A DNA stretch of 64,000 nt from a bacterium HR35 (GCA_002898235.1 BEIL01000003.1:2264-66263), one strand, 5' to 3'; numbered from the stretch's first letter, positions 1 through 8,344 are shown. Translations and numbers: made by a program. The notes: generated by a model not told the origin, from the letters alone.

Positions 1-327
1 ACTGCCTTCGAGGGAGTAATGAACGAGCAACTGGAAAGCCTCATCCTGATCGCCAAGGGGTTAGCAAAAACCGAATCAGAACGCAATGACGTTGACGCTG
101 TTATCCAAGCACATCTCAGCGGCGAAAAGGTAATGGGGCAGTTTAAACAACTTCTGACCCGCATCGTTCAGAACTTCCTCGAGGAGTTTCAAGAAAAGCG
201 AGCGGAGGTTCTGCGGGATCCTTCTTATATCTCGGCTATTCTTGAAAGGGGTGCCGAGATAGCTAAGGATAACGCAGAAGAAACGCTTAGCGCCGCCATG
301 GATGCTTTGCAACTAAAAAGGGGCTAA
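1..327 (+). CDS. trpS: Tryptophanyl-tRNA synthetase, C-terminal fragment; the gene starts upstream of the window (frame 1 is open from nt 1).
   Basis: The translation ...GQFKQLLTRIVQNFLEEFQEKRAEVLRDPSYISAILERGAEIAKDNAEETL matches the conserved C-terminal anticodon-binding helices of bacterial TrpRS, e.g. B. subtilis ...VLDEGAEKANRVASEMV. This stretch is about 50-55% GC, unlike the rest of the window. Confidence 0.6.
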   Translation, partial: TAFEGVMNEQLESLILIAKGLAKTESERNDVDAVIQAHLSGEKVMGQFKQLLTRIVQNFLEEFQEKRAEVLRDPSYISAILERGAEIAKDNAEETLSAAMDALQLKRG

Positions 328-360: not shown

Positions 361-1551
361 ATGAAAAATTTGCGGTACATAATTAATAATAGAAAAACCA
401 AATTTTATGAAATATTAAAAGAAATAGCACTAGAAGAAAATAGATCCTTTAAAGATATTATAAAAGAGTATAACCAATTACTAAAAGAAAGCAAATTTTC
501 AAATAAAAATTTAAACAAAATAATTAAAAAATTCGGATATACTAAAATTTCCAGAAAATTCAGTTTATATGGGTATAAACTAAATTATAAGTTTTCTCAT
601 TATTATAATTTAGAGATATTTAAAAAAATTCCTCCACAAGAAGTAGCTATCGTAACAGGTTTCGGTCCTACAAATCCACCAACAGCTGGAACTCTAGCAT
701 CTATTTTTAGAGCAATCGAATTGCAAAAAAATACAGGGGTTTATACCCATATAACAATATCGGAATTTGGCGCACTAAATTCTAGACAAAGGCCATTGGA
801 AGAATTAATTCAAAACTCATATAAGTTTATTTCTTTTATTAAAGAATTAGGATTTAATCAGAAAAATGGAGAAATTAGAACCCATAACGACCATGATCAT
901 GCAAGAATATTTTCTCTTGTTGCAAGTGTTTTAACCACTAAAGATCTTTTAAAAAATCTTGAAGTTACTTATAATACCTACAAAAGATTGAATTTATTAG
1001 GTAATGATTTCTCGAGAATGGTTAGCAGAGCTTATGTAATATCAGATATCTTATTACCAATAATCCGGGATAAAAAACGCGGCGTAATAGTACCATTAGG
1101 ATTAGAAGAACATCATCATCCATATCTAGCAAGAATAGTTCTCGAAAGATTGAAATTAAAATATAAAAATTTGATTCGTCAAGATGCAGATGTAGGAGCA
1201 TTATATAATAGAATTATTCCAGGGCTTTTCCCGTATTTTAAAATGTCAAAAAGTATTCCGCAGTCCTCTATTAATTTAGGAGATAATGTTGAAGAATTAC
1301 AAAAAAAAATTATTAATTGTAAAAAAATAGACGAAGAAATTATTTTAAAAATGATGTCTCTGGTTTCTGATTGGGATGAAAATAAATTAAAAAAAGCTGA
1401 AAGGGCATTTAATAATCTAAAAAAAGATTACAGAAGCTGGGTAAAGTTTAAATTTGATTATTTAAATTTTTTCATCAAAATAAAAAATATTTGGGAAAAT
1501 ACGAAGTATCCTAAAAATTTTAATTTACATAAAGAAATTTTTAAAAAATAA
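361..1551 (+). CDS. Class Ic aminoacyl-tRNA-synthetase-fold paralogue (TrpRS-like) with a degenerate HIGH motif, an intact KMSKS motif and an N-terminal extension of about 75 aa.
   Basis: Manual alignment to E. coli TrpRS: IVTGFGPTNPPTAGTLASIF aligns with [21 protein letters not shown], so HIGH/TIGN is replaced by TAGT. VPLGLEEHHHPYLARIV aligns with VPVGEDQKQHLELSRDI, the Trp-recognition region, and is altered. FKMSKS is intact. Confidence 0.6.
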   Translation: MKNLRYIINNRKTKFYEILKEIALEENRSFKDIIKEYNQLLKESKFSNKNLNKIIKKFGYTKISRKFSLYGYKLNYKFSHYYNLEIFKKIPPQEVAIVTGFGPTNPPTAGTLASIFRAIELQKNTGVYTHITISEFGALNSRQRPLEELIQNSYKFISFIKELGFNQKNGEIRTHNDHDHARIFSLVASVLTTKDLLKNLEVTYNTYKRLNLLGNDFSRMVSRAYVISDILLPIIRDKKRGVIVPLGLEEHHHPYLARIVLERLKLKYKNLIRQDADVGALYNRIIPGLFPYFKMSKSIPQSSINLGDNVEELQKKIINCKKIDEEIILKMMSLVSDWDENKLKKAERAFNNLKKDYRSWVKFKFDYLNFFIKIKNIWENTKYPKNFNLHKEIFKK

Positions 1552-1607
1552 AAAAACCTGTCTTTAAATTAATCTCTTAAAAATATACAGCTTAATATTG
1601 TTTTTGC

Positions 1608-2783
1608 TTATTCTAAATTTATAGCGTTCAAGAGGAAATTGAAATTCTTTTTATAATCTAACCCTGATATTACTGAGTAGCATTTTACATTTCTAAATAA
1701 TCTATTTAACTCTCTTTTCATGTTTGCTTCTTCTTTGAATTTATTAAATTTGATTAACTTTCTAAAAAGTTCAGTTGTAGGAGCAAAGCTTATTTCTAAA
1801 AATCTATTTACAATTTTTACTGGGTTTATTTTTTTTATAGCCATTTCTGTTGCGTTTTTTTTAAGGCTGACATCAAGAACGTGGGTTATTGTTTTTCTTA
1901 TTACATTATTTCTTTCTTTACATAAATTTTCGAAGTAGATTGATATTTGTTTTTTCTTACCGAGTTGAAATAATTGTTTTTTAGATTTAATTAAACTGTC
2001 TAAAAAACTATTCTTAATTATAATGCCACATCTATTCAAAAAATCCTTAAACTCAAAATATGTTCCAATCCTTATATTAAAATAATTTCTTACATTATAA
2101 TCAAGGATTTTACCAAATTTAGTTATATAAGTAGTTTCCTCAGTTACAATTTGCCAATTATTCTCTAAGAATAACAAAGAAAAAGTGGTTTTCCCGCTTA
2201 GAGAGGGACCGGTTATTAAAATATTATACTTGCCATTACTTACCAATCCTCCATGAATTGCGTATAAATCCCCACAAGCCAAATATGGTATCAATAACAA
2301 AATATTAATCATTGTTATAGCTTTTTTTTCGTTAGATGTTACAATTAAAGAATAATTTGATTCTGTATTATAAATACAGTAAAGATATTCATAACATTTG
2401 ATAATATAAAATTTTTCATCGTTTGTACATTTAGCTTTTGAAGTTTTATAAGTTGCTTTATTAAATTTTTCAACTTCATAATTTGTTAACCAAGCCGAGT
2501 TTTGAAATAAATATTTTACTTCCCTAAAAATATCTTTGTTATTGGTAATAAATATCTTAATAACTTCATTAAAATTATCTGATTTATTATTTGATTTTTT
2601 AAACAAATTATTAAATACCGAGCATAATTTCTTCAAACTATCAAAATATAGGCTATGATTACAGACAATATCAGTTTTTAAATCACTGCCTTTTAATGCA
2701 AAAGATGAGCAGTTATAATCATGTTTTATTGTTTTAATGCTTTCGTTAAAAATTTTATCAATTTTTATGGTTAAATCCATCAT
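1608..2783 (-). CDS. HPr-kinase/phosphorylase-like P-loop serine kinase (HprK C-terminal-domain family, no HprK N-domain).
   Basis: HGGLVSNGKYNILITGPSLSGKTTFSLLFLENNWQIVTEETTYI matches the HprK pattern H-G-x-L-V...G-V-L-I-T-G-x-S-G-x-G-K-S...L-V-x-D-D. Confidence 0.55.
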   Translation of the reverse strand: MMDLTIKIDKIFNESIKTIKHDYNCSSFALKGSDLKTDIVCNHSLYFDSLKKLCSVFNNLFKKSNNKSDNFNEVIKIFITNNKDIFREVKYLFQNSAWLTNYEVEKFNKATYKTSKAKCTNDEKFYIIKCYEYLYCIYNTESNYSLIVTSNEKKAITMINILLLIPYLACGDLYAIHGGLVSNGKYNILITGPSLSGKTTFSLLFLENNWQIVTEETTYITKFGKILDYNVRNYFNIRIGTYFEFKDFLNRCGIIIKNSFLDSLIKSKKQLFQLGKKKQISIYFENLCKERNNVIRKTITHVLDVSLKKNATEMAIKKINPVKIVNRFLEISFAPTTELFRKLIKFNKFKEEANMKRELNRLFRNVKCYSVISGLDYKKNFNFLLNAINLE

Positions 2784-2801
2784 TTCTCTATTTTTATCAT
2801 T

Positions 2802-3917
2802 TTATATAAGTTTAAATTTTTTTATGATATCATAAGAAAATACTCTTTCAATTAAATCACCATGATGTTTCATTTTAATCTCAGGATTATACTGATCGAA
2901 AATCACGTTAATAAAATCGTCATTGTTTATATAATTTCTGAATTTAAAAACTAGATTTTTAACATTATCTATCTCTAAAATATCTGGAAATATTTCAGAA
3001 ATATAATTTAAAGCAAAAAACACATATTTATCAAAACCGTACTTACAAGAGACTTCCAATATTATATCTAGGTTAATCTTGTTAAAATAAGATTGAATAA
3101 AAGTATATATATCAACGAATTTATATAAGTCTAAAACCTTCCTTTTCTTAATCACGTCTATTAAAGCTGATTCCTTATAGAAGTGAATGCATAATTGAAT
3201 AAATAAATATTCTTTTTTTAAAGTATAAATAAAAAAATTGTTATCAATAGGAATAAGAGTTTTTTCTTTTAAAAAACATTCTACTATTTCGCCATTAGAT
3301 TTATTAGATTCCCAATCTAAAGAAAAATTAACGTCCACATTAATTGTTTTAAGAGTATTTTCATCAACAGTTTTAACAAAAGGAGCTGTCTCGCCTTTAG
3401 TATTCATATATTGTGTAACAACCTCTTGTGGAAATTTTTCAATTGTGTTTTTTTTATAATTATATTTACCCTGAATAAAACCTAATTTATACAAAATATC
3501 TTTTACTTGCAGAATAGAGTTTCTAGATATTAAAATATCAATATCATTAAAAGCTCTAGCTCCAAGAGGATAAATAGTAAAAGAAAAAACGCTTCCCTTT
3601 AAAAATACGTGTTCTATATTTGCTTTTTGTAATTCAGAAGAAATGATTTTAATATATTCTTTTTGTAACATAGCTCGTATATATTGTGCTTGATTAATCA
3701 TATATAAAGTAAAAAAAACAGGAAAATCTAATTTTTCTAAGCATCCTATTGTTTTTAGAGTTTCGTACGCAAGGCCAGCAACGCGATGATAACATAAATA
3801 TCCTAGAATCTCGATCCAATTTAAGTTGTTATCTTCGATTATTTTTAGCAATTCATCTCTATTTCTTTTATTTCCTAATCTTACTAGCTTTAACACTGCT
3901 TCGTATTCTTTTTTCAT
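2802..3917 (-). CDS. Uncharacterised nucleotidyltransferase family protein (PF14907-like).
   Basis: VFLKGSVFSFTIYPLGARAFNDIDILISRNS is the KG..hs..lYP....R...DIDlLV signature of the nucleotidyltransferases that co-occur with HprK-like kinases in RiPP clusters. Confidence 0.5.
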   Translation of the reverse strand: MKKEYEAVLKLVRLGNKRNRDELLKIIEDNNLNWIEILGYLCYHRVAGLAYETLKTIGCLEKLDFPVFFTLYMINQAQYIRAMLQKEYIKIISSELQKANIEHVFLKGSVFSFTIYPLGARAFNDIDILISRNSILQVKDILYKLGFIQGKYNYKKNTIEKFPQEVVTQYMNTKGETAPFVKTVDENTLKTINVDVNFSLDWESNKSNGEIVECFLKEKTLIPIDNNFFIYTLKKEYLFIQLCIHFYKESALIDVIKKRKVLDLYKFVDIYTFIQSYFNKINLDIILEVSCKYGFDKYVFFALNYISEIFPDILEIDNVKNLVFKFRNYINNDDFINVIFDQYNPEIKMKHHGDLIERVFSYDIIKKFKLI

Positions 3918-3938
3918 TAATAATATTATCCATGATTA

Positions 3939-4823
3939 TTAGGTTACTTCAAAGTAATTATTTGCCGTGCAACCGACCTCTAATTGTACAGGGAATTCTT
4001 CGTCTAATCTTTTCCAATCTTCATAAAGAATTTCAAAGTTTTCCGTATCTAAAATTTCATCTATATGATCCTTATTTGAGCTTTTGAATACAATTTCCAC
4101 ACAATCTTGTTGCAAAAGCCATTTAACAGCAATTTGGACATTCGTTTTATTGTACTTTTTAGCAACTTCATCTAACAATTTATAAGTACCTTCAGGATAA
4201 AATGGGTCTGGACATCCTGGATACAGTAAACGAATAGGCCTCCACGCAATAAATCTAATTCTATTTTTTCTACAATAATCAATAATCTTTTTTCTTTGAG
4301 ATTCACGGCATACTAAATTATATTGATTTTGAACTGCGTATACTGGTTTTTTTAATAATTGAGAGTATTTTTTTATAGTATCGATTCCAACATTACTTAA
4401 TCCAATATTCTTTATAAGACCCATATCTAGAAGTTTATTCAGAGCTGCGATTGTTTCATTTATAGGAATTTCTGGATTCTGTTTGTGAATGTAATACACA
4501 TCTATATACGATGTTTGGAGTCTTTCGAGAGATTTCTTACAAGATTCAATAACAGCATCATAAAAAAGATTGTATTCACGAACTTTAGTGGCTATAACAA
4601 GCCTATTTCTAGAAAAGCATTTGATTGCTTCTCCTATCAACATTTCTGTCTTTCCACCCGCATAACTTTCTGAAGTATCTATTTGAAATATACCTTTTTT
4701 AATTGCATATCTAATAGCTTCAACATCCCTCTCGTCATCGTTATTTGGATCAGATGTTACATACCCTCCCATACCAAATGTTCCTAGCCAAATTTTTTGT
4801 TTGTAATAACTTCTTTTAATCAT
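3939..4823 (-). CDS. Aldo/keto reductase family oxidoreductase.
   Basis: Contains DTSESYAGGKTEMLIGEA and NIGLSN; length about 290 aa. Confidence 0.65.
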   Translation of the reverse strand: MIKRSYYKQKIWLGTFGMGGYVTSDPNNDDERDVEAIRYAIKKGIFQIDTSESYAGGKTEMLIGEAIKCFSRNRLVIATKVREYNLFYDAVIESCKKSLERLQTSYIDVYYIHKQNPEIPINETIAALNKLLDMGLIKNIGLSNVGIDTIKKYSQLLKKPVYAVQNQYNLVCRESQRKKIIDYCRKNRIRFIAWRPIRLLYPGCPDPFYPEGTYKLLDEVAKKYNKTNVQIAVKWLLQQDCVEIVFKSSNKDHIDEILDTENFEILYEDWKRLDEEFPVQLEVGCTANNYFEVT

Positions 4824-4894
4824 AATTATATATATTATAATTTTAATTGTTTTGTTTAAATAATTTAAAATTGCAATTTAATCAAATTATTAAA

Positions 4895-6256
4895 CTATTC
4901 ACAAAGCAAAAGCTTGGTTAATCTATTAAATTTTTCAACATCTCCACCAGAATAATAAATCAAATCTTCTATAACCCTAATACCTTCCCCCGAGTTTATG
5001 ACTTCTACTGCTAAATTTGCACCATATTTCAAATCATTAACTATTTCTAAACCTAAAAGATTTAAAGCTACTTCCATAGCTACAACCTGTTTAATACTTT
5101 CATTACTTTTACCAGCCAAAAGTTTAATAAATTCACTTAAATTTTCTATTGTATTTTGTCTACTTTCGATATACTTAATTGGCTTAAAACAAAAACCAAA
5201 ATCTTTCGGAGTAACTGTTTTAATAACTATTTGTCCTTTTATACTTTGAGCAATTTCAGTATTACCATTTATTGATACTTGATCAATAACTGGTTTACCA
5301 TTATAATTTTTACCTTGAATCACAAGTATATTTTTTTTAGGATATAATTTACTCAAGATAGCTAAGCATAATTGTGTTGAACCCCTTGTTAACCCATAAT
5401 TTATTAAATCAGCGTCAATTGGATTAACTATAGCTGCTCCACCAACCAGACCAGCGAAAACTTGCACATCATATAAACGACCATTATAAACTTGATTTAG
5501 CTTTGGTACAATTCTATTAATATCAAATATTCCAACTCCTGTTTTAAGCATAATTTCTATCATTTTTTCTATTGGCAAATTTAAATTTATACCCGCGCTT
5601 TCAAAAATATCGGTAGAACCAGTTACACTTGAAGTAGATCTAGAAGCTGTTTTTGTTATTAAAATATTTTTTCCTAGAACTTTACCTACTGCTGCGGTAA
5701 TAATAGCATTCATAGAACTAATGTTTAGTAATTTAGTTTCTTTTTTACCACTACCAGCTAAATTTATAACTTTGACTTCGCTAGTCAATTTTATCTTTCT
5801 ATCAATATCAAAATTATCTAAACTAAAAGCTGATTTTATTATTGCTAATCCATAATTAACTGCTATTTCTAGATTTTTAGAATTATTCATAAATGACCAT
5901 AAAGCGCCGTAAAAATAACCCATTAAAATATCCCTTTTTTGTGGGTCATTAGGATATGTAAGAATATCTAAAAATAAATTACCTATTTCAAGTGGAGACA
6001 AGATACCTCCATTAAGCAAAAAAACACATTTTTCGAGAATTTCGTTATTAGCAAATTTTCCATAATCTTTATTTGGAAATTCTTTGAATTTCGAAAAGTA
6101 ATACAAAAGGATAATACCTTCATAAACTTTAAAATTGCGATTAGAATTATTAATAAGTTTTAATATTAAATAAGCTTCTGCTTTATTGAAATCTTTACCA
6201 GAAGTTAATTTTTGAGTAAATTTAACGATTTTTTTTATAATATTTTCGTCCATCAT
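4895..6256 (-). CDS. Glycosyl-transferase family 3 fold protein (TrpD / thymidine-phosphorylase-like) with a divergent active site.
   Basis: NLAGSGKKETKLLNISSMNAIITAAVGKVLGK...SVTGSTDIFESAGINLNL aligns with TrpD D-t-c-GTGGDG-NTFNIST-AA-V-AA-G...KHGNR...SGSADVLEALG. The GTGGDG glycine loop is GSGKKE and KHGNR is TKTASR. Confidence 0.45.
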   Translation of the reverse strand: MMDENIIKKIVKFTQKLTSGKDFNKAEAYLILKLINNSNRNFKVYEGIILLYYFSKFKEFPNKDYGKFANNEILEKCVFLLNGGILSPLEIGNLFLDILTYPNDPQKRDILMGYFYGALWSFMNNSKNLEIAVNYGLAIIKSAFSLDNFDIDRKIKLTSEVKVINLAGSGKKETKLLNISSMNAIITAAVGKVLGKNILITKTASRSTSSVTGSTDIFESAGINLNLPIEKMIEIMLKTGVGIFDINRIVPKLNQVYNGRLYDVQVFAGLVGGAAIVNPIDADLINYGLTRGSTQLCLAILSKLYPKKNILVIQGKNYNGKPVIDQVSINGNTEIAQSIKGQIVIKTVTPKDFGFCFKPIKYIESRQNTIENLSEFIKLLAGKSNESIKQVVAMEVALNLLGLEIVNDLKYGANLAVEVINSGEGIRVIEDLIYYSGGDVEKFNRLTKLLLCE

Positions 6257-6263
6257 TAAAATT

Positions 6264-7700
6264 TCAACCTTTAATTACTCCAATTGGAACTAATTTGACT
6301 ATTTTTTTAGCAATGCCAATATTATGAACAACATCAACAACTTCTGACACATCTTTATAAGCTTCTGGTGCTTCTTCAGCAAGACCAGACATACTTCCAG
6401 CAGCAACTGAAATCCCTCTTGCTTCTAATTCTTTTTTTAATTCACTTCCTCTTATTTTTCTTTTTGCTTCTGCTCTGGACATCATTCTTCCTGCGCCATG
6501 TGGAGCTGAACCAAAAGAAATCTTTTTAGCTAATTCTTGGCCAATTAAAACATAACTACTTGTTCCCATTGATCCTGGAATTAGTGTTGGCTGACCAATT
6601 TGACGATATTTTTCAGGAAGCTCAGGGTGCCCTTGCCAAAAAGCCCTAGTTGCTCCTTTTCGATGAACTAATAATTTTTTATTATCGTATTCTTCAATCT
6701 TAACTATATTGTGAGCAATATCATAAACTTGTTTTAATTCAATTTCTTTACCAAAAACTTTTTTAAATGCTTTTCTAACTTCATAAGTAATAAGTTGCCT
6801 GTTAGTAAAAGCAAAATTAGCTGCAGCTTTCATTGCTGCTAAATAATCTTGACCAAGTTCATGACTATAAGGAAAATAAGCTAATTCTCTATCAACTAAA
6901 TCAATTCCTTGTTTATCTAAATATCTTAAAGCTTCTCGAATATAATCAGTGGCAACTTGATGACCTAAACCTCTTGAGCCACAATGAATTAAAACACAAA
7001 CTTTATTTTTTTCTAAACCCAATTTTTTACCAATTTCTTCATCAAAAATTTCAGCTACTCTTTGAATTTCAACAAAATGATTGCCAGCACCAATTGTTCC
7101 TAATTGATCCCTACCCCTATCTTTAGCTGTTTTCGAAACTTTATCAGCTTCAGCTCCTTCAATTTTCCCATAACTTTCAGTTGCTTCTAAATCTTCTTTT
7201 TCAGCATAACCAATTTCATAAAGCCATTTTGCTCCTTCTTCTAAAACTTTTTTCATTTCATCATTATTTAACTTCCAAAAACCTCCTCGACCAACACCAG
7301 AAGGAACCTCTTTAAAAATTTGCTCTGTTAACTTTGGTATTTTATCTTTAATTTCCTCATAATAAAAAGGAGAAACCAAAAGACGAACGCCACAATTGAT
7401 GTCATACCCACAAATCCCAGGAGAAATAATTCCCTCATTTGTATCAAAAGCAGCAACACCTCCCACTGGCGAGCCATAGCCTTCATGGATATCAGGCATT
7501 GCTAAGGAATATTTAAAAATACCAGGTAAAGTGGTTAAATTAACTAATTGCCATAAACTTTTATCTTCTAAAATATCAGCCAACATTTTTTCCGAAGCAA
7601 AAAGACGAGCTGGCACTTTCATATCTTCACGAAAACTTTGAGGAATTTCCCAAATATAATCTGAAATTTTAATTAAATCTTTTTTCTCAGGTTTCTTCAT
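6264..7700 (-). CDS. rtcB: RNA-splicing ligase RtcB.
   Basis: Signatures MPDIHEGYGSPVGGV and GTIGAGNHFVEIQ; 478 aa. Confidence 0.85.
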   Translation of the reverse strand: MKKPEKKDLIKISDYIWEIPQSFREDMKVPARLFASEKMLADILEDKSLWQLVNLTTLPGIFKYSLAMPDIHEGYGSPVGGVAAFDTNEGIISPGICGYDINCGVRLLVSPFYYEEIKDKIPKLTEQIFKEVPSGVGRGGFWKLNNDEMKKVLEEGAKWLYEIGYAEKEDLEATESYGKIEGAEADKVSKTAKDRGRDQLGTIGAGNHFVEIQRVAEIFDEEIGKKLGLEKNKVCVLIHCGSRGLGHQVATDYIREALRYLDKQGIDLVDRELAYFPYSHELGQDYLAAMKAAANFAFTNRQLITYEVRKAFKKVFGKEIELKQVYDIAHNIVKIEEYDNKKLLVHRKGATRAFWQGHPELPEKYRQIGQPTLIPGSMGTSSYVLIGQELAKKISFGSAPHGAGRMMSRAEAKRKIRGSELKKELEARGISVAAGSMSGLAEEAPEAYKDVSEVVDVVHNIGIAKKIVKLVPIGVIKG

Positions 7701-8344
7701 TTTTGATTAGCTAACTCTTTTTCTATTTCTTTTTCTAGAGAATCATAACTAGTTAAAGTTACCAACTTTCTATTAACAAAAAAACTTGGCGTTCCTTGAA
7801 GTCCAAACTTTAAAGCTTCACTCCTTTCATTTAGAATTTTTTCTTTTATTTCTTGGTTTTCAAAATCTTTTTTGAATTTATCTAAATCCAAATTCAGGGT
7901 TTTAGCATAGGAAAGAAAAAGTTCTTTTGGATTCGGAGAATTCTTCCATTCTGCTTGTTTTTCAAAAAGAAGGTTATGCATTTCCCAAAACTTTCCTTGT
8001 TTGCTAGCTGCTTCAGCTGCTTGAGCTGCCATTAATGCCTTAGGATGAATTTCGATTAAAGGTAAATGACGATAAATAAAAACAACTTCATCTTTATACT
8101 TTTCTTTTAGAGATTTCACTCTAGGATAAAAAGACTGGCAAGCTGGACATTCAAAATCTGAATATTCAATTACGACAATTTTTGCCTTATTTAAATCACC
8201 TAAAATGTGATCTGTTTCTCTAGGAAAAACATCATATTCTTTTTTAGCCAAGCGAAAACTGCTAACAAATCCCATAAAAACTAAAGAAAAAATAACTAAA
8301 CCAACAAAAATTGTAAAAAAAATGTTGTTTCTATTTTTATCCAT
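7697..8344 (-). CDS. DsbA-family thiol:disulfide oxidoreductase, membrane anchored.
   Basis: N-terminal TM helix, a thioredoxin-fold CPAC active-site motif (FECPACQSF) and the FIYRHLPL region. Confidence 0.65.
   Translation of the reverse strand: MDKNRNNIFFTIFVGLVIFSLVFMGFVSSFRLAKKEYDVFPRETDHILGDLNKAKIVVIEYSDFECPACQSFYPRVKSLKEKYKDEVVFIYRHLPLIEIHPKALMAAQAAEAASKQGKFWEMHNLLFEKQAEWKNSPNPKELFLSYAKTLNLDLDKFKKDFENQEIKEKILNERSEALKFGLQGTPSFFVNRKLVTLTSYDSLEKEIEKELANQK

Follow-up and report, generated by a model that had tools for sequence, protein, structure and literature searches.

HisZ is a class II, HisRS-like paralogue of the aminoacyl-tRNA synthetases (aaRS) that has neither an anticodon-binding domain nor catalytic activity, and its partner HisG has a phosphoribosyltransferase (PRT) fold different from that found at the locus described here. 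With MshC, in mycothiol formation, and with BshC, an aaRS-like, ATP-dependent ligase joins an amino acid to a sugar scaffold after glycosyl transfer and the action of a phosphatase. Biosynthetic clusters of aaRS inhibitors carry a resistant form of the target enzyme (TrpRS for indolmycin, IleRS for mupirocin, SerRS for albomycin and LeuRS for agrocin 84). These systems are compared here with a locus at positions 361 to 6256 of a 64,000-nucleotide stretch (the window; 29% GC, with HRbin35_00446 and HRbin35_00447 among its proteins) of the unclassified bacterium HR35, in which genes for a paralogue of tryptophanyl-tRNA synthetase (TrpRS), a P-loop kinase, a PF14907 (NTP_transf_5) nucleotidyltransferase, an aldo/keto reductase (AKR) and a divergent protein of the TrpD fold adjoin one another. 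An earlier note on this DNA had likened the kinase/nucleotidyltransferase pair to that of lasso peptide clusters, where, in the case of PsmK/PsmN, the HprK-like kinase phosphorylates a hydroxyl group (up to the triphosphate) and the PF14907 protein then decorates the phosphate (PMC6993621).

Neighbourhood searches seeded by the kinase, as the earlier note had suggested, and independently by the TrpRS-like paralogue (PAR) recovered the same module, and the recurrence of the combination in dozens of independent contigs (given L numbers in what follows) argues that it is more than a chance adjacency. Among the 32 non-redundant loci of the window type of at least 7 kb on which the occurrence counts are based, the TrpD-like gene is present in 29, the PF14907 gene in 29, the kinase gene in 28 and the AKR gene in 27, the exceptions being contig ends or a decayed locus with a PAR pseudogene (L065-L067). 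The earlier note had allowed for homologues that never co-occur; on the contrary, they do so almost invariably (27 to 32 of the 32 loci), chance adjacency is rejected, and its proposal of one accessory module with a tryptophan theme is borne out. In L032, a contig with a GC content of 0.61, the six genes lie together in a single co-directional operon. The module is rare and patchily distributed: the kinase is carried by 17 of 185,579 species genomes, and the hosts are Patescibacteria, small-genome ‘Bacilli’ or Tenericutes-like metagenome-assembled genomes (MAGs; RF39-like) and a few high-GC contigs, spanning a GC content of 0.26-0.69. A full-text search of the literature returned no description of the module or of the gene combination, in line with the earlier statement that it matches no known pathway. 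It is very probable that the six-gene module is real, conserved, horizontally spread and undescribed.

The sixth member, which the earlier note missed as such, is trpS. The window holds its 3′ end (1..327, plus strand), cut by the window start, so that only the last approximately 109 codons lie within it; a 102-residue open reading frame (ORF; 19..327) matches positions 239-326 of TIGR00233 (E = 1.4e-11), and the fragment, of the canonical bacterial type 1 (‘TIGN/TVAN’ class), shares 68% identity with the complete TrpRS of L001, in agreement with the canonical trpS reported earlier at the window edge. Complete orthologues that occupy this position in other loci reach 248-257 bits (trpS cut-off, 176.75). 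The gene adjoins PAR in 31 of the 32 loci by ORF calling, and in the 32nd (L012) it was detected by blastn. Between L032 and L001 (contig GC 0.42), TrpRS is 81% identical, with 78% for PAR, 73% for AKR, 72% for the PF14907 protein, 68% for the kinase and 67% for the TrpD-like protein; trpS identity therefore tracks that of the other genes, as for a co-inherited member of the module. The TrpRS enzymes encoded next to PAR are of two bacterial types, designated 1 (TIGN class) and 2 (HLGH class), each of which is above the trpS cut-off, and in L006, L024, L031, L051 and L055 two TrpRS genes lie beside a single PAR; no second trpS is present in the 64-kb window. That the trpS/PAR adjacency is the relic of a tandem duplication was considered and rejected, PAR being nearest to archaeal/eukaryal TrpRS and its neighbours being two different bacterial types.

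ORF calling placed the other five genes exactly where the earlier note had them: PAR at 361..1551 on the plus strand and, on the minus strand, the kinase at 1608..2783, the PF14907 gene at 2802..3917, the AKR gene at 3939..4823 and the TrpD-like gene at 4895..6256. The intergenic gaps, from trpS onwards, are 33, 56, 18, 21, 71 and 7 bp. Four of the five family assignments are backed by hidden Markov model (HMM) scans; the fold of the fifth protein, the kinase, was reached through its predicted structure and transitive sequence links, no Pfam model matching it.

Sister forms of the module, obtained from a metagenome scan, indicate which of its parts are invariant. In the first of them (V2; L049-L057, e.g. 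L055 49..11876), a TrpRS-like gene, the TrpD-like gene, two radical-SAM genes, a PNP_UDP gene and a DUF362 gene are followed by two radical-SAM/SPASM genes, an SDR gene, PAR, TrpRS and a HAD_2 gene, so that the radical-SAM set, the PNP_UDP-like protein, DUF362 and the SDR stand in for the kinase, the PF14907 enzyme and the AKR; V2 thereby has a second, divergent TrpRS-like gene beside its TrpRS, in which KMSKS reads KAGKT. The second form (V3; L070-L076, e.g. L072 8977..15576) consists of a short PAR (PAR′, with ‘HLGT’), a TyrRS, the TrpD-like gene, a zinc-dependent alcohol dehydrogenase (Zn-ADH), a HAD_2 gene, an AAA_33 kinase and a metallophosphoesterase; the TyrRS is bona fide (264 bits; cut-off, 114). 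At L059, where the contig ends before the upstream flank is complete, PAR is accompanied by a HAD gene, the PF14907 gene, an AMP-binding enzyme, a 78-residue carrier-like protein and two ABC exporters, and in L012 and L032 a putative DrrA-like ABC-2 pair, recognized by its motifs, follows PAR. Versions from gut Bacilli add two HAD phosphatases, one of the Cof type and one of the beta-PGM type that in some cases is fused with the TrpD-like gene. Thus, the reductase may be an AKR, an SDR or a Zn-ADH and the kinase HprK-like or of the AAA_33 type, HAD phosphatases recur, and neither V2 nor V3 has the kinase/PF14907 pair. What V2, V3 and L063 all keep is a canonical class Ic aaRS together with PAR and the TrpD-like protein. 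Because this triad persists while the other genes vary, it is the invariant core of the module, and the HprK-like/PF14907 pair is one interchangeable tailoring set.

The coupling of two members of the triad is most directly seen in L063 (contig GC 0.69), in which a single reading frame (2715..5600, plus strand), adjoining a TrpRS gene, carries both the TrpD-like and the PAR domains (Glycos_trans_3N, Glycos_transf_3 and tRNA-synt_1b in Pfam). Near the fusion there are ORFs resembling a radical-SAM enzyme and a P-loop dTMP kinase, as well as a membrane protein similar to UbiA. The TrpD-like protein and PAR are therefore coupled, as HisZ and HisG are, in that an aaRS paralogue is genetically linked to a protein of a phosphoribosyltransferase fold. 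However, PAR is of class Ic rather than class II, is full length and keeps KMSKS, and the module adds further enzymes and a canonical aaRS.

That PAR is a full-length class Ic aaRS (a weak tRNA-synt_1b match, E = 5.6e-9) complete with an anticodon-binding domain had been overlooked by the earlier note. It also carries an N-terminal two-helix extension, and its nearest solved relative by sequence is an archaeal TrpRS (3a04, E = 2e-5). It is not, however, a TrpRS by the equivalog models: its score with the trpS model is 43.3 bits (cut-off, 176.75), all NCBIfam TrpRS scores being far under their cut-offs, and alignment places TAGT where HIGH (HFGH) is expected and GLEE in place of GxDQ. These substitutions and the intact KMSKS sequence are invariant across the family, and the Glu residue that aligns with the binder of the amino group is also kept. 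Conservation of KMSKS and of the active-site residues argues against a catalytically dead protein. The motifs co-vary with the neighbouring synthetase, the TrpRS-linked PAR reading ‘TAGT...SELSALNSRQ’ and the TyrRS-linked PAR′ ‘HLGT...GDLDSYNARN’, so that the specificity of PAR probably follows the identity of its partner aaRS.

These properties of PAR bear on a regulated salvage role, modelled on HisZ-HisG, in which PAR would sense Trp or tRNA-Trp and control a TrpD-like phosphoribosyl or nucleoside-phosphorylase enzyme recovering ribose, nucleosides or PRPP, in co-expression with the housekeeping trpS of auxotrophic bacteria with reduced genomes. The L063 fusion would suit such a role, as would the predominance of Patescibacteria and small ‘Bacilli’ genomes among the hosts, the presence of relA, PAR, a HAD gene and trpS on one strand in the RF39-like loci, and the HAD_2 gene fused to or beside the TrpD-like gene, an arrangement resembling that of a phosphorylase with a phosphomutase or phosphatase. 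Nevertheless, PAR retains KMSKS and its other active-site residues invariant, unlike a purely regulatory paralogue, several loci have two TrpRS genes, and the radical-SAM and exporter variants fit poorly. A housekeeping function is also argued against by the rarity of the module and the breadth of host GC content given above. Rfam searches at the gathering threshold in approximately 70 loci returned only tRNAs and one unrelated T-box, in L018, so that control by a riboswitch or T-box is rejected. On balance, the salvage role is judged rather improbable.

The TrpD-like protein (subtype A in the window, with an N-terminal extension of approximately 70 residues) belongs to Glycos_transf_3 (PF00591, E = 3.4e-20), and its family profile matches solved anthranilate phosphoribosyltransferases (AnPRTs) with E = 8e-41; with TIGR01245, the TrpD model, it reaches 100.5 bits (cut-off, 199) and is outside that equivalog. 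In common with TrpD it has the fold, the KHGN Lys and the segment SS-K-x-GS-x-D, and subtype B also retains the Mg-binding DE pair, which reads DQ in the subtype A protein of the window; the two subtypes are approximately 28% identical. It differs in lacking GTGGD, which becomes GSGKK with a gain of two lysines in the 5′-phosphate loop, and in having lost the Asn and Arg that bind anthranilate (residue roles in AnPRT from PMC9835598), and no trp operon is nearby. The KHGN motif reads KTAS in the window and K-(T/A)-(A/C)-S across the family, confirming that both the PRPP loop and the KHGN motif are degenerate, as had been noted. TrpD2/YbiB proteins, a DNA-binding family, have the same fold, but those of the YbiB type are not retrieved by the TrpD-like profile at E ≤ 1e-3.

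The kinase has no significant match among HMMs or, by sequence, in the PDB, the only HMM match being TIGR00679 at E = 0.03 (13.6 bits; cut-off, 240), and it falls short of the cut-offs of TIGR04352 and TIGR04355 (HprK_rel_A/B), TIGR00679 and PF07475. Its profile found only 55 relatives among 1.84 billion representative proteins, and a word-index profile search for distant relatives returned only the family itself. Remote relatives give consistent sub-threshold matches to HprK_rel_B, HprK_rel_A, hpr-ser, Hpr_kinase_C and FomB, and for this reason the label ‘HprK-like’ is correct at the superfamily level, outside any curated HprK family: the predicted fold is of the HPr-kinase/PEPCK type, with a Walker A motif and an acidic pair after the P-loop strand (E215-E216), both conserved. 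The PF14907 protein is a clear family member (E = 1.9e-31; 110 bits against a gathering cut-off of 31.2) of the Pol-beta-type nucleotidyltransferase fold, whose GS...DxD pattern, here KGS...ND(124)ID(126), is conserved in 18 orthologues; no significant solved relative was found in the PDB by sequence. Both proteins fall outside housekeeping families in the HMM scans, an assignment that the earlier note had left as a way in which its proposal might fail. The AKR, whose gene is absent from L011 and L022, is a regular member of its family (Aldo_ket_red, E = 4e-53; 180.8 bits) with the catalytic tetrad D49/Y54/K80/H112 conserved, and is closest to a T. maritima-type AKR of solved structure (5dan, E = 2e-48); identities of 58-86% across clades make it the most conserved member apart from trpS within its own type. 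Judging from the conservation of catalytic residues, the AKR, the nucleotidyltransferase, the kinase and PAR are probably all active enzymes.

It is this pair of kinase and nucleotidyltransferase that had suggested a cluster for a peptide synthesized ribosomally and modified post-translationally (RiPP), in which, as with paeninodin and pseudomycoidin, the two enzymes would phosphorylate a ribosomal peptide and decorate it. There is a likeness, in that an HPr-kinase-fold P-loop kinase adjoins a PF14907 protein in the lasso clusters (PadeK/PsmK with PsmN; the pair is documented in PMC6993621) and E215-E216 corresponds to the acidic pair after Walker A of PsmK, D158/D159; furthermore, V2 contains radical-SAM/SPASM enzymes. 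However, the module has no precursor peptide, cyclase, B1/B2 protein or transporter, and its kinase is of a family of its own, far below the HprK_rel_A/B cut-offs. The search for a precursor proposed in the earlier note was carried out by screening ORFs of 15-90 residues in 18 loci (the window, L001 and L005-L021), and none is conserved in or near the module, where the gaps in the window are merely 7-71 bp; no lasso cyclase (Asn-synthetase-like), B1 (PqqD-like) or B2 protease gene was found among the Pfam-annotated neighbours and recurrent families of approximately 70 loci. The pair is, moreover, dispensable in V2 and V3, where the triad persists. The module is not a RiPP cluster; the RiPP explanation is largely refuted, and a peptide-decorating role is now very improbable.

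The module is perhaps best read, and only tentatively, as a pathway for a small molecule, a putative Trp-(phospho)ribosyl or nucleoside-like conjugate, with the co-inherited TrpRS serving for self-resistance or supply. The earlier note had considered modification of either a peptide or a small molecule; aminoacylation or adenylation, phosphorylation and nucleotidyl transfer are retained in this proposal, acting on a small molecule, and the peptide substrate is not. The reading is favoured because the same roles are filled by non-homologous enzymes, because variants with radical-SAM enzymes or with an adenylating enzyme and carrier exist, because some hosts add ABC exporters and because the distribution is rare and patchy. 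We infer as follows in what order the enzymes act, on what substrates and to what product, and what trpS contributes. The TrpD-like enzyme would form or transfer a phosphoribosyl unit onto an acceptor other than anthranilate; the reductase (AKR in the window) would reduce a sugar carbonyl, with HAD phosphatases acting on an intermediate in other hosts; the HprK-fold kinase would phosphorylate either a hydroxyl or an existing phosphate, and the phosphate so installed would be capped by the PF14907 enzyme, after the PsmK/PsmN precedent. PAR would activate Trp (Tyr in V3) as the adenylate and ligate it to the ribosyl scaffold, physically working with the TrpD-like protein. The canonical TrpRS may be a self-resistance copy against a product resembling an aminoacyl-adenylate, or a dedicated supplier of Trp-tRNA, and the switch in identity of the co-inherited aaRS with the type of PAR would fit either role.

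By analogy, the pathway logic would be that of MshC and BshC. The resemblance to the clusters for aaRS inhibitors lies in the co-inheritance of a canonical aaRS with the module genes, the two TrpRS genes at one locus in some cases, the exporters in some variants and the switch to TyrRS with the paralogue type; the differences are that the module lacks the known biosynthetic enzymes of those clusters and that its hosts mainly have ultra-small genomes.

Several observations weigh against a small-molecule pathway. The anticodon-binding domain of PAR is complete and would suit a tRNA-dependent role at least as well. The AAA_33 kinase of V3, with matches to PSTK (E = 4e-13) and to the Pnkp kinase (E = 1e-9), stands beside a metallophosphoesterase, as in an RNA-end-healing signature. 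With GSGKK in place of GTGGD, the TrpD-like enzyme may use a substrate other than PRPP. Most hosts are bacteria of approximately 1-1.5 Mb (Patescibacteria and RF39-like Bacilli), and genomes of this size rarely carry natural-product clusters; in such hosts the trpS of the module could simply be the sole one, and no exporter was seen in the window or in most of the patescibacterial loci.

Some of these points are shared with the main rival, an RNA-linked system, which appears unlikely but ranks ahead of the salvage and RiPP roles. In it, PAR and the canonical aaRS would select tRNA-Trp or tRNA-Tyr, and the kinase, phosphatase, nucleotidyltransferase and TrpD-like protein would act on the tRNA or aminoacyl-tRNA, by end healing or rebuilding of the 3′ end, by PRPP-dependent ribosylation, or by converting the amino acid while on the tRNA, in the manner of PSTK/SepSecS or Gat. 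Such a system would make use of the entire TrpRS architecture that PAR keeps, anticodon-binding domain included, of the PSTK- and Pnkp-like kinase of V3 followed by a calcineurin-type phosphoesterase, and of the two lysines gained in the 5′-phosphate loop of the TrpD-like protein; PF14907 is a nucleotidyltransferase of the Pol-beta type, as are the CCA-adding enzymes, and a P-loop kinase combined with a HAD phosphatase is the logic of T4 Pnk. In the window an RtcB gene precedes the TrpD-like gene by 8 bp, and in L018 a tRNA-Trp gene adjoins the module; both would point the same way, but RtcB is not a conserved neighbour and, of approximately 70 loci, a single one has an adjacent tRNA gene. The PSTK/Pnkp scores are, furthermore, all far below the cut-offs, the TrpD-like profile retrieves true AnPRTs and not the nucleic-acid-binding TrpD2/YbiB proteins, and reductases of three kinds, a radical-SAM set, an adenylating enzyme with its carrier and ABC exporters are difficult to accommodate in RNA repair.

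Whatever the chemistry, it is possible, albeit unlikely, that the triad of PAR, TrpD-like protein and aaRS represents a new class of aaRS-paralogue system in one of two extreme forms. In the first (a), ultra-small symbionts would make aminoacyl-ribosyl mimics of an aminoacyl-adenylate or of the tRNA 3′ end directed against TrpRS or TyrRS, immunity coming from the aaRS inherited alongside. In the second (b), a dedicated aaRS-like enzyme would load a Trp-derived non-canonical amino acid produced by the pathway, or a ribosylated Trp, onto tRNA, in on-tRNA chemistry or a system resembling a code expansion. If, more generally, the module is what it seems to be, its architecture would be an unrecognized one, in which a divergent, full-length class Ic aaRS paralogue obligatorily coupled, and sometimes fused, to a TrpD-fold enzyme travels with its own canonical TrpRS (TyrRS in the sister form) through Patescibacteria, small-genome gut Bacilli and, sporadically, high-GC bacteria. 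It would join HisZ-HisG as the second case in which an aaRS paralogue has been recruited to a partner of the phosphoribosyltransferase fold, would give a role to three unannotated protein families, and could reveal a Trp/Tyr-derived metabolite or an aaRS-targeting compound from organisms thought to be nearly devoid of secondary metabolism. The L032 locus offers a concrete, clonable six-gene operon.

Other assignments were considered and set aside. A PADLOC scan gave no match below E = 0.005, and an anti-phage defence system is rejected on these grounds, as is a phage or viral origin, the PAR profile having no match in 2.9 million viral contigs. A dedicated tRNA gene is rejected since tRNA-Trp adjoins the module only in L018, a Bacilli MAG, among the approximately 70 loci. 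There, tRNA-Trp(CCA) (5930..6003, minus strand) lies immediately downstream of the TrpD-like gene and is followed by the T-box leader of the next aaRS gene (5541..5731, minus strand).

In the window, RtcB (E = 1.7e-168) is encoded at 6264..8344 on the minus strand. Between the end of its gene and the TrpD-like gene downstream lie 8 bp, and at its start the gene shares 4 bp with the stop of one for a DsbA-like thioredoxin; from this spacing and overlap, the four minus-strand genes of the module may be co-transcribed with dsbA-rtcB in the HR35 genome. RtcB, DsbA and SHMT are nevertheless rejected as members of the module, none being a conserved neighbour, and RtcB is linked to the TrpD-like gene in no other locus. 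Scans for promoters and terminators in this AT-rich DNA were uninformative (54 sites compared with 47 expected).

Several contigs and proteins (L013/L002, L008, P0002 and P0047) are binned with Ignavibacteriales, Anstonellales/Parvarchaeum (DPANN) or Nitrososphaeria, and the module genes in question are of the kind typically seen in Patescibacteria or Bacilli; either mis-binning or a genuine inter-domain transfer would account for them. In L065 (6802..~8000), L066 and L067, PAR survives as three separate ORF fragments, a GC-rich trpS and a helix-turn-helix (HTH) gene persist and the rest of the module is gone, so that these loci appear to represent a decaying copy of the module.

The composition of trpS sets it apart from its surroundings. 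In the window, where the mean GC content is 0.29, that of trpS is 0.49, with 0.52 at third codon positions (GC3), and in the window and at least ten other subtype A loci (the outliers include L001, L005, L022, L025, L026, L028, L033, L061 and L065) the type 1 trpS has a GC content of 0.45-0.51 and a GC3 of 0.45-0.60, the adjacent module genes and host flanks having a GC3 of 0.14-0.34. Recent transfer was rejected as the cause: the DNA identity of trpS between loci, 70-75%, equals that of PAR, which argues that the GC-rich codon usage, rather than being newly imported, has been maintained over time. The window start and a Logan assembly made independently from the same sample (L079 1..475) both break inside trpS, at points no more than approximately 150 bp apart, which may reflect a discontinuity in coverage or strain at this GC-rich gene.

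Directly upstream of the type 1 trpS in L025, L001, L005, L026, L065 and L066 there is a gene for a HTH_17/MerR-like (excisionase-type) protein of 60-83 residues (415..597, plus strand, in L025; 13593..13844, minus strand, in L001; approximately 85% identical between the two), whose position in the window would fall beyond the 5′ edge. It is likely to be a seventh gene, or the regulator, of the subtype A modules.

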